This document shows positions 3,591 to 37,677 of a stretch of DNA of 37,926 nt, one piece after another. Made by a program: the position numbers and the translations under genes. The notes under the pieces are model-generated. The model made no database searches, was not told where the DNA came from, and saw nothing but the letters and a program-made list of their open reading frames with translations. The stretch spans positions 1 through 37,926 of the forward strand of contig JACPKE010000004.1 in the NCBI GenBank assembly GCA_016187205.1, read 5' to 3'. Each line of letters starts with the position of its first letter. Within the stretch, counting starts at the first letter, position 1. This stretch comes from Candidatus Brennerbacteria bacterium (GTDB taxonomy: Bacteria; Patescibacteriota; Minisyncoccia; UBA6257; JACPKE01).

Positions 3591-4988
3591 TTATCGCAAC
3601 GTTTTCGTTAATTTCTTAAAAACTTTACCTCTTTCTTTGTAGTCTGTAAACATATCAAAGCTGGCTGATCCGGGGGAAAATAATATGATTAATTTAGTTT
3701 TTAGCTTATAGTTTTTTCCGCCAGAGGCGGATCCGCCTTCGGCGGAAGTTTTTAACTTATTAGCTTTTTTATATGTTAAATTAACAGCGCCTTTTAAATC
3801 TTTCGTTAAAATAATAGGCACACCGGTTTTTGAAATCGCTTTTTTTATTTTATTTTTATTTTCTCCGAATAATATAATCTCAAGCGTGTTGGAATTTTTT
3901 AAAGTGTTTGCCAATGGTTTGAAATCAAGCTTCTTGTCTTTGCCGCCGGCAATTAAAATTTTTGGTTCTTTAAAAGCTTTTATCGCGGCCGCGGTTGTCT
4001 GGGGATTGGTAGATGCGGAATCGTTATAGAAAAACATTCTAACATTCTTGAGAATGTCAGAATGTTTTTTAACAGGGATTTTAATTGATTTAATCAATTC
4101 TAAGCGATGCTCAAGGCCTTTAAAACCCTCAATTGTTTTTTTTATAATATTTTCTTTTATTTTTAAAAAGCGGCAGACTTCCGCGGCCATTAAAGCGTTT
4201 TTGATGTTATGTATCCCGTTAATTTTTAAATTTACGAAGTGGGACTTCGTAAATTTAACAGGGATTTTTTTGGCTCGGCTTTTTGCAATAATTGGTTTTA
4301 AGCCCGGCTCATTATTAAAATAAAATATTTTATCGCCGATTATTTGATTTTTTACAATTCCGGCTTTGGCATTTATATATTCTTTAAAGTTTTTATGCGA
4401 GTCTAGATGGTCGGGAAAAATATTTAAAATCACGGCGATGTTAGGGGAATATTTCAATTCTTGGAGCTGGAAGCTGGACATTTCCAGCACAACAATTGAT
4501 TTTTTTGATAAGCGCGGAAGTATTTCAATTGCTGGTTTGCCGATGTTGCCTGCCAAATAAACATCGCGCTTTGCGGCTTTTAAAATTTTATAAATCAAAG
4601 TTGAGGTTGTGCTTTTGCCTTTGGTGCCGGTTATGCCTATTGTCAGGCATTTGATTTTTTTAGTTTGTTCCAAAAATAATTCTGTGGAACTTGTTATTTT
4701 TGTTCCTGATTTCGCCGCTTCCTGTATTTCTTTTGTCATATACGGAATTCCTGGAGAACGGAAAATAACGTCAAAAATTTCCAAATTTTTAAGGTATTTT
4801 TCTCCGGATATGATTTTAACGCGTTTATTTTTTCCGCCTTTGGTGAAAAATAAAGATTTTACAGGTTTGCGGTCGCAAATCGCAATTTCATAATTTTTAT
4901 AATCGGGAGATTTTAAAAGATAGCGTAAAAGCGCTTGTCCTTCGCGGGCAAAACCAAGAATGGCGATTTTTTTATGAGTTTTTATCAA
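3591..4988 (-). CDS. murD: UDP-N-acetylmuramoyl-L-alanine--D-glutamate ligase
   Basis: Mur ligase P-loop GITGTKGKSTTSTL, an N-terminal Rossmann-like segment (IAILGFAREGQ), GIHNIKNALMAA and a LEHR motif. Length is typical of MurD. Contains two in-frame hairpin insertions (see the repeat features). Confidence 0.9.
   Translation of the reverse strand: MIKTHKKIAILGFAREGQALLRYLLKSPDYKNYEIAICDRKPVKSLFFTKGGKNKRVKIISGEKYLKNLEIFDVIFRSPGIPYMTKEIQEAAKSGTKITSSTELFLEQTKKIKCLTIGITGTKGKSTTSTLIYKILKAAKRDVYLAGNIGKPAIEILPRLSKKSIVVLEMSSFQLQELKYSPNIAVILNIFPDHLDSHKNFKEYINAKAGIVKNQIIGDKIFYFNNEPGLKPIIAKSRAKKIPVKFTKSHFVNLKINGIHNIKNALMAAEVCRFLKIKENIIKKTIEGFKGLEHRLELIKSIKIPVKKHSDILKNVRMFFYNDSASTNPQTTAAAIKAFKEPKILIAGGKDKKLDFKPLANTLKNSNTLEIILFGENKNKIKKAISKTGVPIILTKDLKGAVNLTYKKANKLKTSAEGGSASGGKNYKLKTKLIILFSPGSASFDMFTDYKERGKVFKKLTKTLR
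3717..3746 (-). repeat. 30-bp GC-rich double-hairpin element, in-frame in murD (encodes SAEGGSASGG)
   Basis: The coding strand reads TCCGCCGAAGGCGGATCCGCCTCTGGCGGA. This is 29/30 identical to the copy in gap (33062-33091). Confidence 0.85.
4226..4258 (-). repeat. 33-bp hairpin element (core GAAGTGGGACTTC), in-frame in murD (encodes ..FTKSHFV..)
   Basis: TTAAATTTACGAAGT-GGG-ACTTCGTAAATTTAA forms a 15-bp perfect stem with a 3-nt loop. The same 13-nt core occurs twice in pheT (7933-7972). Confidence 0.8.
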
Positions 4989-5799: not shown

Positions 5800-5868
5800 A
5801 AGATTAGTTGTTTGGTAAGTTCATGAATAAAAATATAAATGATTAATAACCATTTATATTTTTATTAG

Positions 5869-6175
5869 TTGCGGATCGGGGAATCGAACCCCACCCTAAA
5901 GGTTATGCTTGCTACTACGATTTTCATCGCCTCCAAAATTAGGAGTTTGTAGTCTGGACTATACCTTAATCCTGTTTTAACGGGATTCTCGCCATCTAGT
6001 CTCTACGCCTTCTTCATCTCTTCATAATTCAGAGAAACCGAAGCTTGGTTCGGTATTACCTCTCCGTTGTTGGAAGGGGCTCCACCGAGTTTGACGAGTG
6101 TCCATCACTTATTACTAAGTGACGAGCCCATATTAAGTTTTGAGCCTTTCGAGCTCACCAGAGCTCTTATCCGCC
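5869..6175 (-). tRNA. Intron-containing tRNA, predicted anticodon CAT (initiator-like features); exons 6175..6143 and 5907..5869
   Basis: 5' exon is GGCGGATAAGAGCTCTGGTGAGCTCGAAAGGCT and 3' exon is CATAACCTTTAGGGTGGGGTTCGATTCCCCGATCCGCAA. Joined, they give a 72-nt class I cloverleaf with anticodon arm AAAGG-CTCATAA-CCTTT and T-arm TGGGG-TTCGATT-CCCCG. The 5' exon ends in U and the intron ends in G, as group I splicing rules require. Confidence 0.75.
5908..6142 (-). ncRNA. Group I intron (IC3-like), 235 nt, in the anticodon loop between positions 33 and 34
   Basis: Contains core blocks that I recall from the Azoarcus pre-tRNA-Ile intron: GTCAAACTCGGTG, CCAAGCTTCGG, and GATGAAG..GCGTAGAGACTAGATGGC followed by TTAAGG. 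No ORF lies inside. Confidence 0.75.
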
Positions 6176-6264
6176 TTTATATTATATTTAAATACTTTTT
6201 TCTTGTCAAAATTTATGCGCCTCTTTAATTTGCCAATAAAATTTTAGCCATTACAATTAAAATA

Positions 6265-10957: not shown

Positions 10958-12937
10958 ATGCCGAAAAAACCAGTTAAAAAAGAAGAAAAAAAGCCAGTAA
11001 TTCCGGCGGAAAAATCCGAAAAACAGCCGTCTTACACCGCTAAAGACATTTATGTTTTGGAAGGTTTGGAGCCGGTTCGCAAGCGTCCCGGTATGTATAT
11101 TGGTTCAACCGGAGTTGACGGTTTGCATCATTTGATTTGGGAAGTTGTTGATAACAGCATTGACGAGGCAATGGCCGGATACGCCAAAAATATCCGCGTT
11201 GAGCTTTTATCCGCCTCCGGTGGAAAGAATTACCACGTGGCTGTTAGCGACGACGGCCGCGGCATTCCGGTTGAAATTCACGCTCAAACAAAAAAATCCG
11301 CCTTGGAAACGGTAATGACAACGCTTCATGCCGGCGGTAAGTTTGGCGGGGAGTCATATAAAGTTTCAGGGGGCCTGCATGGCGTCGGAGTTTCGGTTGT
11401 CAATGCTCTATCAAAATGGCTGCGCGTTGAAGTGTGCCGCGACGGACAATTGTATTCCCAGGAATACGAAACAGGAAATCCGAAATATAAAGTAAAAAAG
11501 GAAAATAAATGCCAGAAAACCGGCACTAAAGTTATTTTTGAGCCGGACCCGAAAATTTTCAGCAAAATTGAATTTGACCTTAAAAGAATTCTTGACCATC
11601 TTCGCCAGCAAGCGTATCTCACCAAGGGCATCAGGATTGAATTTATTGACGAGAGAACCAGTCAGCCGTTTTATTATTCTTTTTATTTTGAAGGCGGTCT
11701 TTTATCGTTTATAAAATATCTTCAGGCCGGCCGCCAGATAATCCATGACAATATTTTTTACGTTCATAAAAATTACGAAAATATAGAAGTGGAAGCGGTC
11801 GCGGTTTATAAGGAAGATTTGGAAATGCAGGAAATGACTTTTGCTAATAATATTTACACTCCTGACGGCGGTATGCATTTGACGGGTTTTCGTTCCGCCA
11901 TCACCAGAAGTTTGAATGATTATGCCTGGAAAGAAGGCTATTTAAAGCAAAAAGACGAGAATTTGACCGGCGATGACGTGCGGGAAGGGCTGACTGTCAT
12001 AGTTTCCGTGAAAATAAGGGAACCGCAGTTTGAAGGCCAGACAAAAGCGCGGCTTGGCAATCCGGAAGCGCGGACTGCCGTTGAATCCGTTGTTAGCGAG
12101 GCTTTAAAAGAATTTTTGGAAAAGCATCCGGCTGACGCCAGAAAAATAATTGAAAAATGTCTGCTGGCGGCCAAAGCCCGAAAAGCCGCTAAAGCCGCCA
12201 AGGACACGGTATTGCGCAAAGGCGCTTTGGAAGGCATGACTTTGCCGGGAAAACTTGCCGATTGTTCTTCGCGCGATCCCGAAGAATCGGAACTTTTTAT
12301 AGTGGAAGGCGACAGTGCCGGCGGAAGCGCCAAGCAAGGACGGGACCGGCGCACTCAGGCAATTCTGCCGCTTAAAGGGAAAATTTTGAATGTTGAAAAA
12401 GCGCGTATTGACAAGATGTTATTAAACAAGGAAATTCGGGCCTTGGTGGTGGCTCTTGGCACCGCCATTGCCGACGAGTTTGATATTGAAGGGCTTAGGT
12501 ACCACAAAATTATTTTAATGACCGACGCCGATGTTGACGGTTCGCATATCCGCACTTTGCTGTTAACTCTTTTTTACCGGTATTTTCCCAAAATTATAGA
12601 AAACGGCAATCTTTATATCGCTCAACCGCCGCTTTACAGAGTGCAAAAAGGCAAGGAAATTATTTACGCTTATTCCGATAATGAAAAAGAAAAAATTCTG
12701 AAAAAGTTTGATTCTGACGGCGCGAACATCCAACGTTATAAAGGCTTGGGCGAAATGAATCCGGATCAGTTGAGTGATACTACGATGAATCGTGAAACGC
12801 GGATATTAAAAAAAGTGGAAGTTGGCAATGCCGCCGAAGCGGACAGGCTTTTTGATGTTTTGATGGGGGAAAACGTTGAACCGAGGAAAAACTTCATCCA
12901 ATCCAGGGCCGAAGCGGTTAAAAATCTTGATGTTTAA
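10958..12937 (+). CDS. gyrB: DNA gyrase subunit B
   Basis: LEGLEPVRKRPGMYIGS, HHLIWEVVDNSIDEA, DDGRGIP, GGLHGVG, the Toprim motifs EGDSAGGSAKQGRDR and PLKGKILNVE, IILMTDADVDGSHI, and a C-terminal QRYKGLGEMNP. Confidence 0.97.
   Translation: MPKKPVKKEEKKPVIPAEKSEKQPSYTAKDIYVLEGLEPVRKRPGMYIGSTGVDGLHHLIWEVVDNSIDEAMAGYAKNIRVELLSASGGKNYHVAVSDDGRGIPVEIHAQTKKSALETVMTTLHAGGKFGGESYKVSGGLHGVGVSVVNALSKWLRVEVCRDGQLYSQEYETGNPKYKVKKENKCQKTGTKVIFEPDPKIFSKIEFDLKRILDHLRQQAYLTKGIRIEFIDERTSQPFYYSFYFEGGLLSFIKYLQAGRQIIHDNIFYVHKNYENIEVEAVAVYKEDLEMQEMTFANNIYTPDGGMHLTGFRSAITRSLNDYAWKEGYLKQKDENLTGDDVREGLTVIVSVKIREPQFEGQTKARLGNPEARTAVESVVSEALKEFLEKHPADARKIIEKCLLAAKARKAAKAAKDTVLRKGALEGMTLPGKLADCSSRDPEESELFIVEGDSAGGSAKQGRDRRTQAILPLKGKILNVEKARIDKMLLNKEIRALVVALGTAIADEFDIEGLRYHKIILMTDADVDGSHIRTLLLTLFYRYFPKIIENGNLYIAQPPLYRVQKGKEIIYAYSDNEKEKILKKFDSDGANIQRYKGLGEMNPDQLSDTTMNRETRILKKVEVGNAAEADRLFDVLMGENVEPRKNFIQSRAEAVKNLDV
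11210..11233 (+). repeat. Single-hairpin relative of the 30-bp element, in-frame in gyrB (SASGGKNY)
   Basis: TCCGCC-TCC-GGTGGA (6-bp stem with one G-T pair), followed by AAGAATTAC. Homologues that I recall (E. coli, B. subtilis GyrB) are shorter just before the DDGRGIP motif. Confidence 0.6.
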
Positions 12938-24350: not shown

Positions 24351-25835
24351 ATGTCTGAATATAAACCCACAATTGGTTTGGAAATTCACGCGGAACTTAA
24401 GACAAACACCAAAATGTTCTGTGGTTGTTTGAATGATCCGGAAGAAAAACATCCGAACGTAAATGTTTGCCCGATTTGCCTTGCTCACCCCGGGACTTTG
24501 CCGGTTATTAATCGCCAGGCCGTTGAAGCGGTTATTAAACTTGGTTATGCTGTCGGCGGCATTATTCCTAAAACTTCCCATTTTGACCGCAAGAGTTATT
24601 TTTATCCGGATTTGCCGAAAGGTTATCAGATTTCGCAGTATGAAAATCCTTTGGTTGAAGGCGGAAGTTTGTTGGGAGTCAGAATAAAAAGAGTGCATTT
24701 AGAGGAAGATACGGGGCGATTAATACATAGTAGCCCTTCGACAGGCTCAGGGCGACCGGCTTCGCTGGTCGATTTTAACCGCGCCGGTATTCCGTTAATG
24801 GAGCTGGTTACCGAGCCGGATATTAAAAATGCCGAACAAGCCGTAAAATTTGCAAAGGAGCTTCAGCTTATTTTGCGGTATCTTGGGATATCGGACGCGG
24901 ATATGGAAAAAGGCCAGATGCGGGTTGAAGCCAATATCAGCGTATCCGATAGCGGCGACATGGGAGTGAAGGTGGAAGTTAAAAACATAAATTCTTTTAA
25001 AGCGGTTAAAGACGCTATAGATTATGAAATTAACCGGCAGAAGCAGGTTATTGAGGCGGGAGACCCCGAAGGATCCCGACAAGGCGGGACCTACGGGGCA
25101 GGAAAAATAATTCAGGAAACGCGCGGCTGGGATGATGTTAAAAGAATCACTAAATCCCAGCGGACAAAAGAATCGGCCCATGATTACCGTTATTTTCCGG
25201 AGCCGGATTTGCCGCCTTTGGAATTTTCCGATGCTGTGCTTGAAAAAATAAAACTGGAATTGCCGGAACTGCCCGAAGCAAAAAGAATCCGTTTCATGAA
25301 AGAATTCGGGTTTAATCGGGAGCAAGCCGAAACTATCATTGCCGATCGTTTCGCGGCCCAGTATTTTGAATCCGCAGTTTCCGAACTTCTTGAATTTCAG
25401 CCGGAATTGACGCCTTTCAGCCTGCTTTATAATTATTTTACCAGCGATTTATGGGGTTTAATGGCTCAAAAAGGAATCGGATTCGGGGATTTGAAAATTC
25501 CGCCGGAACACTTAGCGCACCTTGTTTCATTAATAGCCGATGAAACGTTTTCAAGCCGCATGGCCAAAGACGTTTTGGCGAAAATGTTTGACAGCGGACT
25601 TGATCCGGAAGCTATTATTAAAGAATCCGGGTTAACGCAGATGGGAGACGAAGAGGACCTGACTGCGATAATTGAGGAAGTAATTAAAGAAAATTTGCCG
25701 GCGGTGGAAGACGTCAAAAAAGGTAAGCAAAATGCGGTTCAGTTTTTAATCGGACAGGCAATGAAAAAATCTAAAGGCCGAGCCAAACCGGAAGCCGTTA
25801 AAAAACTTTTGGACAGGCATATTAAAACCTTATAA
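24351..25835 (+). CDS. gatB: Asp-tRNA(Asn)/Glu-tRNA(Gln) amidotransferase subunit B
   Basis: KPTIGLEIHAELKT..KMFCGC, VCPICLAHPGTLPV.N, SHFDRKSYFYPDLPKGYQISQ, HLEEDTG, SLVDFNRAGIPLMELVTEPD, RVEANISV, and a C-terminal YqeY-like tail. Contains two apparent in-frame inserts. Confidence 0.95.
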   Translation: MSEYKPTIGLEIHAELKTNTKMFCGCLNDPEEKHPNVNVCPICLAHPGTLPVINRQAVEAVIKLGYAVGGIIPKTSHFDRKSYFYPDLPKGYQISQYENPLVEGGSLLGVRIKRVHLEEDTGRLIHSSPSTGSGRPASLVDFNRAGIPLMELVTEPDIKNAEQAVKFAKELQLILRYLGISDADMEKGQMRVEANISVSDSGDMGVKVEVKNINSFKAVKDAIDYEINRQKQVIEAGDPEGSRQGGTYGAGKIIQETRGWDDVKRITKSQRTKESAHDYRYFPEPDLPPLEFSDAVLEKIKLELPELPEAKRIRFMKEFGFNREQAETIIADRFAAQYFESAVSELLEFQPELTPFSLLYNYFTSDLWGLMAQKGIGFGDLKIPPEHLAHLVSLIADETFSSRMAKDVLAKMFDSGLDPEAIIKESGLTQMGDEEDLTAIIEEVIKENLPAVEDVKKGKQNAVQFLIGQAMKKSKGRAKPEAVKKLLDRHIKTL

Positions 25836-30248: not shown

Positions 30249-31186
30249 TGTACGATGTAATTATTGTTGGCGGCGGGCCGGCTGGAGTTGCCGCCGGAAT
30301 CTACACCGCCAGGAAAAAATTAAAAACGCTTTTAATGACAGAGGAATTCGGCGGCCAGTCAATCGTGTCCGATGACATTCAGAATTGGATTGGCGATGCC
30401 CACATTTCCGGTTTTGATTTGGCGAAAAAACTTGAGGCGCATTTGCGGACTTATTCCGATGATGTTGATATTAAAATTCCGGAAAAAGCCGTTGAGGTGA
30501 AAAGAATCGGCGATGGTTTGACGGCTATGGGATTTGAAGTGAAAACCGATAAAAATAATGTTTATCAGGCAAGAGCGGTGATTTTAGCGAGCGGAGCGCG
30601 CCGCAGAAAATTAAATATCCCGGGAGAGGACCGCTTGAACGGAAAAGGAGTTGTTTATTGTTCAACTTGCGACGCCCCGCTTTTTAAAGATAAAGCGGTG
30701 GCTGTTGTCGGCGGAGGCAATGCCGGCTTGGAAGCGGTAGTTGATCTTTTTCCTTACGCGTCAAAAATTTATCTTTTGGAATTCGGTGAAACTCTCAAAG
30801 GCGACCAGGTTTCCCAGGAAGAGGTGAAAAAGAACCAGAAAGTTGAAATTCTTTTTTTTGCCGAAACGCGCGAGATATTGGGGGATAAGTTTGTTGCCGG
30901 ATTGAAATACAGCCACCGCAAAACAGGCGAGGAAAAAATTTTGGATGTAAAAGGAGTTTTTGTTGAAATCGGTTCGGTTCCCAATTCCGAAATGGTTAAA
31001 GGTTTGGTGGCGCTGGATAAATATGGCCAGGTGATTATTGATTCAAAACACAGCACCACTTCCGAACCGGGAATTTTCGCGGCTGGAGACGTTACCGACG
31101 ATCCTTACAAGCAGAATAATATTTCCGTAGGCGACGCGGTTAAGGCGGCTTTGGCGGCTTATAATTATCTTTTGAAGAATAAGTGA
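30248..31186 (+). CDS. trxB: Thioredoxin-disulfide reductase
   Basis: YDVIIVGGGPAGVAAGIY (FAD-binding), the CSTCDAPLF redox CxxC, VVGGGNAGLEAV (NADPH-binding) and FAAGDVTD. Confidence 0.9.
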   Translation: MYDVIIVGGGPAGVAAGIYTARKKLKTLLMTEEFGGQSIVSDDIQNWIGDAHISGFDLAKKLEAHLRTYSDDVDIKIPEKAVEVKRIGDGLTAMGFEVKTDKNNVYQARAVILASGARRRKLNIPGEDRLNGKGVVYCSTCDAPLFKDKAVAVVGGGNAGLEAVVDLFPYASKIYLLEFGETLKGDQVSQEEVKKNQKVEILFFAETREILGDKFVAGLKYSHRKTGEEKILDVKGVFVEIGSVPNSEMVKGLVALDKYGQVIIDSKHSTTSEPGIFAAGDVTDDPYKQNNISVGDAVKAALAAYNYLLKNK

Positions 31187-31719
31187 TAGTCGTACTTTCT
31201 GATATTCGGAGTATTTATAATGTCGGTTCAATTTTCCGAACCGCGGACGCGGTTGGCGCTGAAAAAATTTATCTTTGCGGAATAACTCCGGCGCCGATTG
31301 ACCGTTTCGGAAAAATTAGGCCGCAATTTGCCAAAGTTTCTCTTGGCGCGGAAAAATTAGTTAAATGGGCAAAGGTAAAAGCGACAGGCGTAATTATTGA
31401 AAAATTAAAAAAAGACGGGTATAAAATATTTGCTATTGAGCAGTCAAAAACATCAATTCTTTATTATAAAACCAATCTATCGCGGTCCGACCGCGATAGA
31501 TTGGTTTTGATTTTAGGGGGCGAAGTTAAAGGGTTGCCGCCGGCGATTTTAAAAAAAGCCGACAAGGTTTTGGAAATTCCGATGAGAGGGGCAATGGTTC
31601 GGCAGGCTCACCATCCGCGAAGTTTAGGCCGCGGAAAAGAATCGTTGAATGTATCAGTTGCTTTCGGCGTTATCGCTTATTTTTTAAGATTCAAAAAATG
31701 CAACGTTATATTCAATTAA
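31183..31719 (+). CDS. SpoU/TrmH-family RNA 2'-O-methyltransferase
   Basis: NVGSIFRTADAVG, LVLILGGEVKGL and IPM.G....SLNVSVAFGVIAY (SPOUT motifs 1-3). GTG start overlapping the trxB stop. Two apparent in-frame inserts. Confidence 0.85.
   Translation: MIVVLSDIRSIYNVGSIFRTADAVGAEKIYLCGITPAPIDRFGKIRPQFAKVSLGAEKLVKWAKVKATGVIIEKLKKDGYKIFAIEQSKTSILYYKTNLSRSDRDRLVLILGGEVKGLPPAILKKADKVLEIPMRGAMVRQAHHPRSLGRGKESLNVSVAFGVIAYFLRFKKCNVIFN
31468..31508 (+). repeat. 41-bp near-perfect palindrome inside the SpoU methyltransferase gene
   Basis: AAAACCAATCTATCGCGG-TCCGA-CCGCGATAGATTGGTTTT (18-bp stems), encoding KTNLSRSDRDRLVL. Confidence 0.85.
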
Positions 31720-32992: not shown

Positions 32993-34036
32993 ATGAAAAA
33001 TGTAAAAATAGCAATAAACGGGTTTGGCAGGATAGGCCGGCTTTTTTTCCGCCAGGCTTTTTCCGCCCAAGGCGGATCCGCCTCTGGCGGAGGTTTAGAT
33101 ATCGTTGCCGTTAATGATCTGGGCGATATTGAAAATTTGGCTTATTTGTTAAAATACGACACTGTTTACGGCCGGTTCGCCAAAGAGATAAAAGTAAAAA
33201 GCGATAAGTTAATTGTTGATAATAAAGAAGTTAAATTTATTCAGGAAAAAGATCCGGCGCGGCTGCCCTGGAAAGATTTGGGAATAGATATTGCGATTGA
33301 ATCAACGGGATTTTTTGAATCCTATGATAAAGCTAAAGCGCATATCGGCGCCGGAGCCAAACGGGTTGTTATTACCGCTCCGGCAAAAGATCCGGACGGC
33401 GTTGAAGGGAAAACAATCTTGATTGGAGTGAATGAAGCAGAGGCAAAAGGCATTGTTTTGACTTCAAACGGTTCCTGTACCACTAATGCCGCGTCTCCGG
33501 TAATCCAGATAATGTCCGAAAATCCGGGTATTCAGAAAGCGATTTTAAACACGGTTCATGGCTATACCGCTACGCAGAATTTGGTTGACGGGCCGACCAA
33601 GGGCAAGGATTTCCGGCGCGGCCGGGCCGCGGCCCAAAATATTTCGCCTTCAACAACCGGCGCGGCTATCGCGGTTACCCGCGTCATTAAAGAATTGGAA
33701 GGAAAATTTGACGGCGTGGCTTTGCGGGTGCCGGTTGCGACGGGTTCGGTCGCCGATATCACTTTTCTGGCAAAACGGAAAACTACCGAAGCTGAAATTA
33801 ACGATATTTTTAAACAAGCTGCCGCGTCTCCGAGATGGAAAGGGATTTTAGCCGTCACCGAAGACCAGATTGTTTCTTCGGATATCATCGGCGAACCATA
33901 CGGCGCGATTGTTGATTTGAAATTTACCAAAGTTGTTGACGGCGATCTGGTGAAAATTTTGTCATGGTATGATAATGAAGCCGGATATGTTTCAACACTT
34001 ATCAAACATGTTTTAAATGCCGCCGCATTAGTTTAA
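32993..34036 (+). CDS. gap: Type I glyceraldehyde-3-phosphate dehydrogenase
   Basis: KIAINGFGRIGR, the SNGSCTTNAASP active-site Cys, and WYDNEAGY at the C-terminus. Confidence 0.95.
   Translation: MKNVKIAINGFGRIGRLFFRQAFSAQGGSASGGGLDIVAVNDLGDIENLAYLLKYDTVYGRFAKEIKVKSDKLIVDNKEVKFIQEKDPARLPWKDLGIDIAIESTGFFESYDKAKAHIGAGAKRVVITAPAKDPDGVEGKTILIGVNEAEAKGIVLTSNGSCTTNAASPVIQIMSENPGIQKAILNTVHGYTATQNLVDGPTKGKDFRRGRAAAQNISPSTTGAAIAVTRVIKELEGKFDGVALRVPVATGSVADITFLAKRKTTEAEINDIFKQAAASPRWKGILAVTEDQIVSSDIIGEPYGAIVDLKFTKVVDGDLVKILSWYDNEAGYVSTLIKHVLNAAALV
33062..33091 (+). repeat. 30-bp GC-rich double-hairpin element, in-frame in gap (encodes SAQGGSASGG)
   Basis: TCCGCCCAAGGCGGATCCGCCTCTGGCGGA. It inserts between the GRIGR helix and the IVAVND strand, where E. 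coli GapA as I recall it is about 7 residues shorter. Confidence 0.85.
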
Positions 34037-37071: not shown

Positions 37072-37677
37072 TTGGAAAAAGGGGGTATATCGGCAACGGT
37101 GAGAGGTATGACCATCACTCTCGCTATGGACGATAGACAATTGTCCACCATCCAGGAGGTCGAACGGTTTACCGCGGGAACGGCGGCTGCCCTGTTTCGC
37201 GGCAGTTCGCGCAAGGAAAAGTACGCCTGGGCGGAAGCAACCCTCATCCGCTTCCGCTACGCGCGGCTTCGCAAGAAGGAAAGGTCGTCGGTCAGGGAGT
37301 TTATCCGCAAAATCACCGGCTATTCCGACATCCAGACTAAGCGGCTCATCGGACAGTACCTCGACTCGGGCAAAGTGCTCCTCCAGTCTTGTTTCAACGA
37401 ATATCTGAATTTCCACCGTCCCTGCGGGTTTGCCACCGTGATTGTGGATGCTAAAGGCAAAGAGAAGAAAATATATAACGTGTATGAAACCCCGTATGAG
37501 AGGTTCGGATCGCTTTCCGGAGCGGAACAGTATCTCAAGCCGGGTGTCTCGTTCGCCGAGCTTGATTGCGTTGCCCAGAGGATGAGCGATACCGAATATG
37601 CTATGATGAAGCAAAAGGCCGAATTATTGTCCGCTATAGGCGGAGCCGCTTCAGGCGGAAAAAACCTCTCTCGTTAG
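37072..37677 (+). pseudogene. Transposase remnant (HTH N-terminus joined directly to the C-terminal tail; DDE core missing)
   Basis: The N-terminal part (..KEKYAWAEATLIRFRYARLRKKERSSVREFIRKITGYSDIQTKRLIGQY) is followed directly by the tail NEYLNFHRPCGFATVIVDAKGKEKKIYNVYETPYERF..AEQYLKPGVSFAELD. In full-length rve-type transposases that tail follows the catalytic domain. There is no DDE region in between. Confidence 0.6.
37630..37659 (+). repeat. Diverged copy of the 30-bp double-hairpin element at the 3' end of the transposase remnant (SAIGGAASGG-KN)
   Basis: TCCGCTATAGGCGGAGCCGCTTCAGGCGGA. Both hairpins are retained through T-G wobbles, and it is followed by AAAAAC as in murD. Confidence 0.65.

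Follow-up and report, generated by a model that had tools for sequence, protein, structure and literature searches.

A 30-bp double-hairpin element inserted in frame in conserved genes of Patescibacteria and other bacteria

Copies of the element in the window

The window analyzed here, a stretch of 37,926 nucleotides from contig JACPKE010000004.1 of a Candidatus Brennerbacteria bacterium (GenBank assembly GCA_016187205.1), carries a short GC-rich element composed of two hairpins that lies in frame within protein-coding genes. Host genes treated below were identified by Pfam as encoding MurD, GyrB, GatB, SpoU and GAPDH. An earlier note on this DNA had reported that gap, the GAPDH gene, and the unrelated murD gene share nearly the same 30 nucleotides, and the sequence reads as claimed: the gap copy at 33062-33091 on the plus strand is TCCGCCCAAGGCGGATCCGCCTCTGGCGGA, the murD coding strand (reverse complement of 3717-3746) carries TCCGCCGAAGGCGGATCCGCCTCTGGCGGA, and the two agree at 29 of 30 positions.

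Our scan beyond the window covered one genome per species and returned at least 120 loci from about 106 assemblies; the copy counts used below refer to the matches listed (L and P numbers are our own labels). Within the window, a pattern with free loops and at most 3 mismatches matched 3 times, compared to 0.00 expected in 100 dinucleotide-preserving shuffles. A covariance model built from 129 copies was run unfiltered across the whole window, and the copies recovered, with the open reading frames (ORFs) that contain them, are as follows:

33062-33091, plus strand: canonical double-hairpin copy in gap (ORF 32993-34036), read as SAQGGSASGG; 54.5 bits (33059-33094)
3717-3746, minus strand: canonical copy in murD (ORF 3591-4988), read as SAEGGSASGG; 56.5 bits (3714-3749)
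37630-37659, plus strand: diverged copy in an rve-family transposase remnant (ORF 37072-37677), read as SAIGGAASGG; 40.6 bits (37627-37662)
11210-11224, plus strand: single-hairpin 15-nt copy TCCGCCTCCGGTGGA in gyrB (ORF 10958-12937), read as SASGG; 16.1 bits, E = 0.003 (11205-11227)

The copy at 37630-37659, which has 3 mismatches with T-G wobbles, lies near the C-terminus of its ORF, a remnant of an rve-family transposase (PF00665; InsO-like) in which the catalytic core is deleted and N-terminal and C-terminal parts of homologues of roughly 350 residues are fused. This copy and the gyrB hairpin had both been proposed as diverged relatives, and both were borne out by their scores; the gyrB copy is a real member of the family. 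Sliding G+C content across the window is 33-44%, a background against which the element's GC-rich codons stand out.

Precise insertion and reading frame

The earlier note had also proposed that the inserts fall where homologues are shorter, and this was the case for GAPDH, MurD and GyrB, whose orthologues lack the residues. GAPDH has 347 residues in the window, compared to 337-338 typical of its clade, and its closest orthologue (L123/P0002, 89% amino acid identity) is without the element and reads FRQAF-SHKD-LDIVAVND. The gap insert is a gap in the alignment to solved GAPDH structures, and an AlphaFold model (mean predicted local distance difference test score, pLDDT, 83) places it at residues 24-33, spanning the end of helix 13-25 and continuing into the loop that precedes strand 35-41; pLDDT is < 50 at residues 27-32. 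Similarly, the murD insert is a gap against T. maritima MurD (4buc), and its site is empty in 13 MurD relatives with identities of up to 52%. For gyrB, 97 of 97 readable close orthologues are without the five residues (VELL|SASGG|KNYHVA in the window versus VELLKNNRVA, generally VELLxxNxVA; bars mark junctions), and M. tuberculosis GyrB is five residues shorter at this site. The transposase remnant reads AELL|SAIGGAASGG|KNLSR where homologues end in AELLKNLSR, and the insert is present in 1 of 120 homologues.

Exact removal of the 30 bp restored recognizable sequence at other loci as well, namely the T-arm GGGTTCAAATCCC of two tRNA 3' fragments, the motif NPFNPSTT (NPF|NPSTT) of the type IX secretion system (T9SS), and the four-residue GAPDH loop in P0018 (F|ELPELEI) and P0052. 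The element is a discrete unit, and its insertion is precise.

Two of these contexts deserve description in their own right. The split tRNA sequences are partial 3' ends (L092, 1720-1780; L112, 3310-3360) whose T-loop is divided by the element (GGGTTC|AAATCCC); they lie directly downstream of intact tRNA genes, and the L092 fragment copies the 3' end of the neighboring tRNA-Ser. The GAPDH loop after FRQAF (window 33059-33100) holds unrelated inserts in P0017, P0028, P0029, P0045, P0081, P0090 and P0091, including LSSEALAKGE, AKASAGQ(T/A)G, DKSSASQARSG and one of 23 residues, and this surface loop is therefore a general insertion hot spot. The insertions of L131 and L132 in the same loop contain no hairpin of the element family.

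We counted reading frames for copies located in stop-to-stop ORFs of at least 100 codons. The 103 such copies were distributed over frames 0, 1 and 2 as 80:12:11 (chi-square P = 1.6 × 10−20), so that genic copies fall overwhelmingly in one frame rather than at random, as the earlier note's idea of in-frame insertion had anticipated. Frame 0 encodes S-A-x-G-G-S-A-x-G-G, ten flexible residues. Frame-0 copies of long ORFs make up about 65% of all copies, and about a third are found elsewhere; many of the out-of-frame cases adjoin ORF ends or lie between genes. The earlier observation that the window has no intergenic copy holds. Loop stops were absent from frame-0 genic copies, TGA-type loops being confined to the others, which indicates, as judged from the reading frames, that the element is translated rather than bypassed. 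A copy at 7364-7393 of L066 is read in frame 2 as LRQRRIRLGRK within what reads, from its translation alone, like a NifS/IscS-type cysteine desulfurase gene, so that out-of-frame copies can persist in real genes.

Hosts recognized by Pfam comprise PheT (with two copies), UvrB, UvrC, Mfd, DnaE, DnaK, RpoB, RpoC, GyrA, CysRS, an AspRS-type synthetase, a class I tRNA synthetase, a member of the ATP synthase alpha/beta family, a release factor, TsaD, TPI, HsdR and others. Of the 120 listed loci, four (L047, L058, L076 and L077) were taken to represent the dnaK region, where Pfam called Hsp70 in L058 only and the assignments of DnaK in L047, GrpE in L076 and the DnaJ G/F region in L077 are readings of translations. 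By rough estimate, this share is larger than a region of about 4 kb in a 1-Mb genome should receive.

Hairpin structure, flanks and distribution

The unit is exactly 30 bp long and consists of two abutting 15-nt hairpins, each with the 6-bp stem TCCGCC/GGCGGA. Across 122 copies, loop 1 takes the form N-R-A (A9 in 95%) and loop 2 the form T-Y-N (T22 in 94%), and the nearly invariant A9 and T22 are third codon, or synonymous, positions. Because N-R-A and T-Y-N are reverse complements of each other, either strand shows the same form and gives the same SAxGGSAxGG reading; the shared sense orientation to which the earlier note drew attention is for this reason uninformative. The doublet is the common unit, with 117 exact doublets, 0 triplets and about five true singlets in 905 kb.

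Two folds had been suggested for this unit, either a pair of hairpins or a single structure around the central palindrome, and only the first was sustained. In the 129-copy alignment, 8 of the 12 pairs of the two-hairpin model had changes on both sides (15 cells), a level reached in 0 of 500 shuffles, while slid controls gave 1-3 pairs. The loops are fully complementary in just 23 of 122 copies, so the element is not a perfect 30-bp palindrome, and covariation for the long hairpin was weak; we therefore discarded the long palindrome as the fold that matters. Energy minimization with DNA parameters yields the double hairpin (−12.8 kcal/mol, z = −4.2), while RNA parameters favor the long hairpin instead. 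The covariation fits the DNA-type double hairpin better, and the element matched no known RNA family in Rfam.

The stem changes themselves are well illustrated by variants found independently at orthologous or in-gene sites. Compensated stems occur in GAPDH of L124 (TCCGCT-GAA-AGCGGA, at the cost of a Gly to Ser change) and L127 (TCCTCC-TCC-GGAGGA, Ala to Ser), in MurD of L134 (TCCACC-TCC-GGTGGA) and in L129 (TCAGCC-CGA-GGCTGA / CCCGCC-TTT-GGCGGG), with similar variants in L087, L115, L098, L023 and L056.

Flanking sequence also shows a clear preference. Among 122 copies, T occupies position −2 in 86%, T or C position −1 in 84%, A position +1 in 62% and A position +2 in 79%, giving a T-rich | A-rich preferred junction, TTY|RAA. 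Flanking direct repeats of 2-6 nt showed no excess over permuted pairings, and a fixed target duplication was rejected.

The element is not specific to this type of genome, as it occurs in at least about 106 metagenome-assembled genomes (MAGs) of many phyla; the phenomenon is much broader than the window alone could show. Patescibacteria of many classes account for about half of the matches listed, and the remainder belong to Omnitrophota, Kiritimatiellae, Lentisphaeria, Planctomycetes, the Planctomycetes-Verrucomicrobia-Chlamydiae (PVC) group, Ignavibacteriota, Bacteroidota, Chloroflexota and others. Because bona fide T9SS C-terminal domains carry the element, binning errors do not account for its presence in many phyla. 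MurD-linked loci of related bacteria, not selected for the element and totaling 144 kb, contained 4 copies, a density that suggests tens of copies per megabase genome. Carriage by phages or plasmids was considered and rejected, as there were only 2 matches in 2.9 million viral contigs (IMG/VR), 0 in the GenBank phage collection, and nothing beyond two 20-nt partial matches in the plasmid collection PLSDB.

In one Kiritimatiellae MAG (L002, two copies in L005, and L054), the element occupies the center of a larger repeat with the shared flanks …CATAGGAATTT[el]CAATCCGTCTTTGTT…, and it can therefore travel inside bigger repeats.

Proposed mobilization, alternatives and known systems

We consider the element to be a non-autonomous, replicative nano-element, mobilized in trans and similar to the Rickettsia palindromic elements (RPEs), whose in-frame copies survive selection, and we place the probability of this reading at roughly 0.65. 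Under such a mechanism, the folded hairpins would be recognized, most likely as single-stranded DNA, by a putative enzyme supplied in trans, for which our best guess is a single-strand transposase of the HUH/Y1 type. Resident copies would be duplicated and inserted, generally without target duplication, at TTY|RAA junctions. Insertions would land in all frames and in intergenic DNA, and within genes selection would retain mainly copies in the SAxGGSAxGG frame, where a small flexible peptide may be tolerated in surface loops, such that essential proteins gain 10-residue loops. Single-hairpin copies such as that in gyrB probably arise through slippage between the two 15-nt units. The occurrence of the element in many phyla would reflect its horizontal transfer among them.

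Two sets of observations bear on copying and mobility. First, loops were identical in 10 of 32 within-genome pairs compared to 4.7% of pairs between genomes (P = 1 × 10−6, or 3 × 10−4 without one larger repeat), and this within-genome identity implies that new copies are templated from resident ones. Second, occupancy of GAPDH sites is patchy. Carriers at site 1 (P0001, P0003, P0009, P0012, P0018 and P0052) are scattered among insert-free relatives in a neighbor-joining tree, and the distribution of the element is homoplasious on the gene tree. For four close GAPDH genes, nucleotide sites supported the quartet (window,L123)|(L124,L126) by 41:13:12, whereas site 1 is occupied in the window and L124 only and site 2 in L124 and L126. 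Reconciling the quartet with site-1 occupancy requires repeated insertion at a hot spot, a precise loss, or recombination.

Several results weigh against trans-mobilization. All-against-all clustering of 2554 ORFs from 122 8-kb loci revealed no transposase-like family recurring near the elements and no RAYT (REP-associated tyrosine transposase, the partner of the repetitive extragenic palindromic sequences, REPs) among the recurrent families, which were ordinary (response regulator, M23 peptidase, glycosyltransferase, epimerase and ROK). Likewise, the 905 kb contained no autonomous parent with single units at its ends. Flanking direct repeats of 7 nt, identical or one base off, accompany 9 of 122 copies where 1.0 would be expected (L035, L037, L046, L064, L065, L066, L071, L093 and window 3710-3753, the murD copy, which has AGTTTTT on both sides), a feature that insertion without duplication leaves unexplained; most of these copies lie in short arrays of A/T-rich heptamers. 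The identity of stems across phyla is partly an effect of ascertainment, as the search pattern required those stems, and insertion events were deduced by comparing sequences. Finally, selfish DNA in neutral decay should not accumulate compensatory changes in its resident copies, and these call for a function of the hairpin, for variant masters that inserted independently, or for template-switch correction. Either of the last two could produce the compensatory pattern without selection, template-switch correction acting on quasi-palindromes.

The element may instead be a host-beneficial motif in cis, a functional DNA or RNA signal (for example a site where a conserved factor binds or processes it, or a signal in mRNA or in replication) selected wherever it lies, including within genes, with mobility secondary or historical. 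We regard this as the foremost alternative, though an improbable one. It would account for stem changes retained despite their amino acid cost in L124 and L127, for the near invariance of the synonymous A9 and T22, and for a stable structure with the same stems across phyla. However, close orthologues do well without the element, its copies share no common context (unrelated genes, an insertion sequence pseudogene and tRNA fragments), Rfam offers no match, symmetric compensatory changes speak against sequence-specific protein binding, and template-switch correction could imitate the selection that this explanation invokes.

A footprint of excision is less probable again. Here the two 15-bp units would be the terminal inverted repeats of a larger transposon that has lost its interior, and an intact relative of 1-3 kb would be bounded by TCCGCCNRAGGCGGA and TCCGCCTYNGGCGGA. 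The two units are indeed mutual inverted repeats, and only doublets are common, with no triplets alongside the 117 of them. Yet in 905 kb no gene-sized segment is flanked by two single units, true singlets are rare, target duplication is lacking, no transposase recurs nearby in the 122 loci, and the viral, phage and plasmid collections yielded only the few matches given above.

Convergent selection on proteins, in which flexible Ser/Ala/Gly linkers are favored in loops and the likeness of the DNA follows from codon choice, is highly improbable and already contradicted by the data. While the peptide is of the usual flexible-linker type and its loop is predicted to be disordered, two unrelated genes of a 36-43% G+C genome share 29 of 30 nucleotides with GC-ending codons, wobble positions are fixed, intergenic DNA, other frames and tRNA fragments have copies too, and stem changes are compensatory at the nucleotide level. 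The least credible explanation is an artefact of library preparation or assembly (a palindromic adaptor or a chimera, for instance), for although all hosts among the matches listed are MAGs and the center of the element is a BamHI site, copies come from assembly series with many naming schemes, taken as independent projects and assemblers (among them the MFD series, which we presume to be long-read), lie in frame in conserved genes, display mutational decay and compensatory variants, and are shared by orthologues between samples (L124/L125/L126).

We compared the trans-mobilized element with known systems. RPEs are palindromic repeats of about 150 bp that lie in frame in many unrelated, often essential genes, where they are translated and compatible with the protein fold (PMC10969869). 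The present element likewise occurs in frame in unrelated essential genes (80 of 103 copies, with no loop stops) and appears to be translated, so the earlier likening of this DNA-level repeat family to RPEs rather than to intergenic REPs or bacterial interspersed mosaic elements (BIMEs) is well founded. It differs from RPEs, which measure about 100-150 bp, form families each with a consensus peptide and are described only for Rickettsia, in being 30 bp long, in having no content besides its two hairpins, and in its Patescibacteria and other hosts.

REPs, BIMEs and the inverted REP doublets termed REPINs, together with RAYTs (HUH Y1), are described as 20-40 bp GC-rich imperfect palindromes (PMC3733652, PMC8049555); REPs have a terminal GTAG or CGTC tetranucleotide on one side (PMC3733652) and are extragenic. 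Our element is also a short, GC-rich imperfect palindrome arranged in inverted doublets, but a GTAG/CGTC tetranucleotide lies within 8 nt of just 10 of 124 copies, 65% of copies are in frame in genes rather than extragenic, and its two units abut with no spacer, unlike those of REPINs. REPINs move without target duplication, and their hairpin is recognized as single-stranded DNA. Compared to DDE-type miniature inverted-repeat transposable elements, the element is without a fixed target-site duplication, the copies with 7-nt repeats being a minority.

Mitochondrial GC clusters, double-hairpin elements and Neurospora PstI palindromes are mobile, GC-rich sequences of compact AT-rich genomes that occur both in intergenic DNA and in frame in coding sequence, and they form double hairpins or palindromes centered on a restriction site. 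The element shares with them a GC-rich double hairpin found in genes and intergenic DNA; the mitochondrial sequences, however, belong to fungal and protist organelles and are longer and more variable, so that the likeness is one of architecture, with no evidence of a common sequence or mechanism. Palindrome-associated transposable elements (PATEs) derived from IS200/IS605 have hairpins at both ends, insert beside a short specific sequence without duplication and can be precisely excised. Hairpins and the lack of a 2-6 nt duplication are common to both, whereas PATEs need tens of nucleotides outside their hairpins for recognition of cleavage sites, of which the element has none, and the flank preference of the element is symmetric (TTY|RAA). 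By analogy, the element may be said to work like an RPE, with the construction of a REPIN in miniature or of a mitochondrial double-hairpin element. Our search of the literature found no paper describing it.

If trans-mobilization is true, a DNA-level process would have repeatedly delivered the same 10-residue loop to slowly evolving essential proteins, among them RNA polymerase, DnaK, gyrase, tRNA synthetases and GAPDH. This would explain part of the "unusual insertions" in proteins of Patescibacteria and other uncultured bacteria; selfish DNA residing in coding genes, a phenomenon described so far for the single genus Rickettsia, would then occur in many phyla, with a five-fold smaller unit. 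It would also point to a hairpin-specific mobilization activity common to phyla. A single regular expression could serve as a simple metagenome marker for recent insertion, horizontal exchange and strain variation, and the inserts are relevant to annotation, alignment and structure prediction of the host proteins. More speculatively, and with somewhat less than even confidence, we suggest a 30-bp nano-transposon of bacteria at large, which would be made of two hairpins and nothing else and would be smaller than any self-contained mobile unit seen so far. It would be copied via single-stranded DNA by a putative hairpin-specific enzyme and inserted at T|A junctions without duplication, would move between phyla in groundwater and lake communities, and would still be a major source of the loop insertions that essential proteins of ultra-small bacteria acquire.

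Other features of the window lie apart from the element. Two further loci that the earlier note had counted as diverged members did not qualify: gatB at 25064-25098 reached 2.0 bits in a targeted search (25072-25106), and SpoU at 31614-31635 reached 6.5 bits with an E-value of about 2 (31598-31638) and is part of a different, 42-nt insertion. GatB does have a 13-residue insertion, PEGSRQGGTYGAG (25066-25104), that is missing from the T. maritima and A. aeolicus structures; it is not assignable to the element family. The SpoU ORF (31183-31719) contains a 14-residue in-frame insertion, AMVRQAHHPRSLGR (window 31596-31637), which is present in L131 (8734-9300) and missing in the L126 and L130 orthologues. 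Its first 29 nt match L131 at 28 positions by hand count, with the proteins just 61% identical, and from these sequences it looks like a second, different in-frame repeat family. At 5931-6152 on the minus strand, Rfam identified a group I intron (59 bits). Its flanks (about 5860-5930 and 6153-6195) look like two halves of a tRNA, with the acceptor, D and anticodon-stem half upstream and the T-arm GGGGTTCGATTCCCC and acceptor end downstream; ARAGORN calls no tRNA there.

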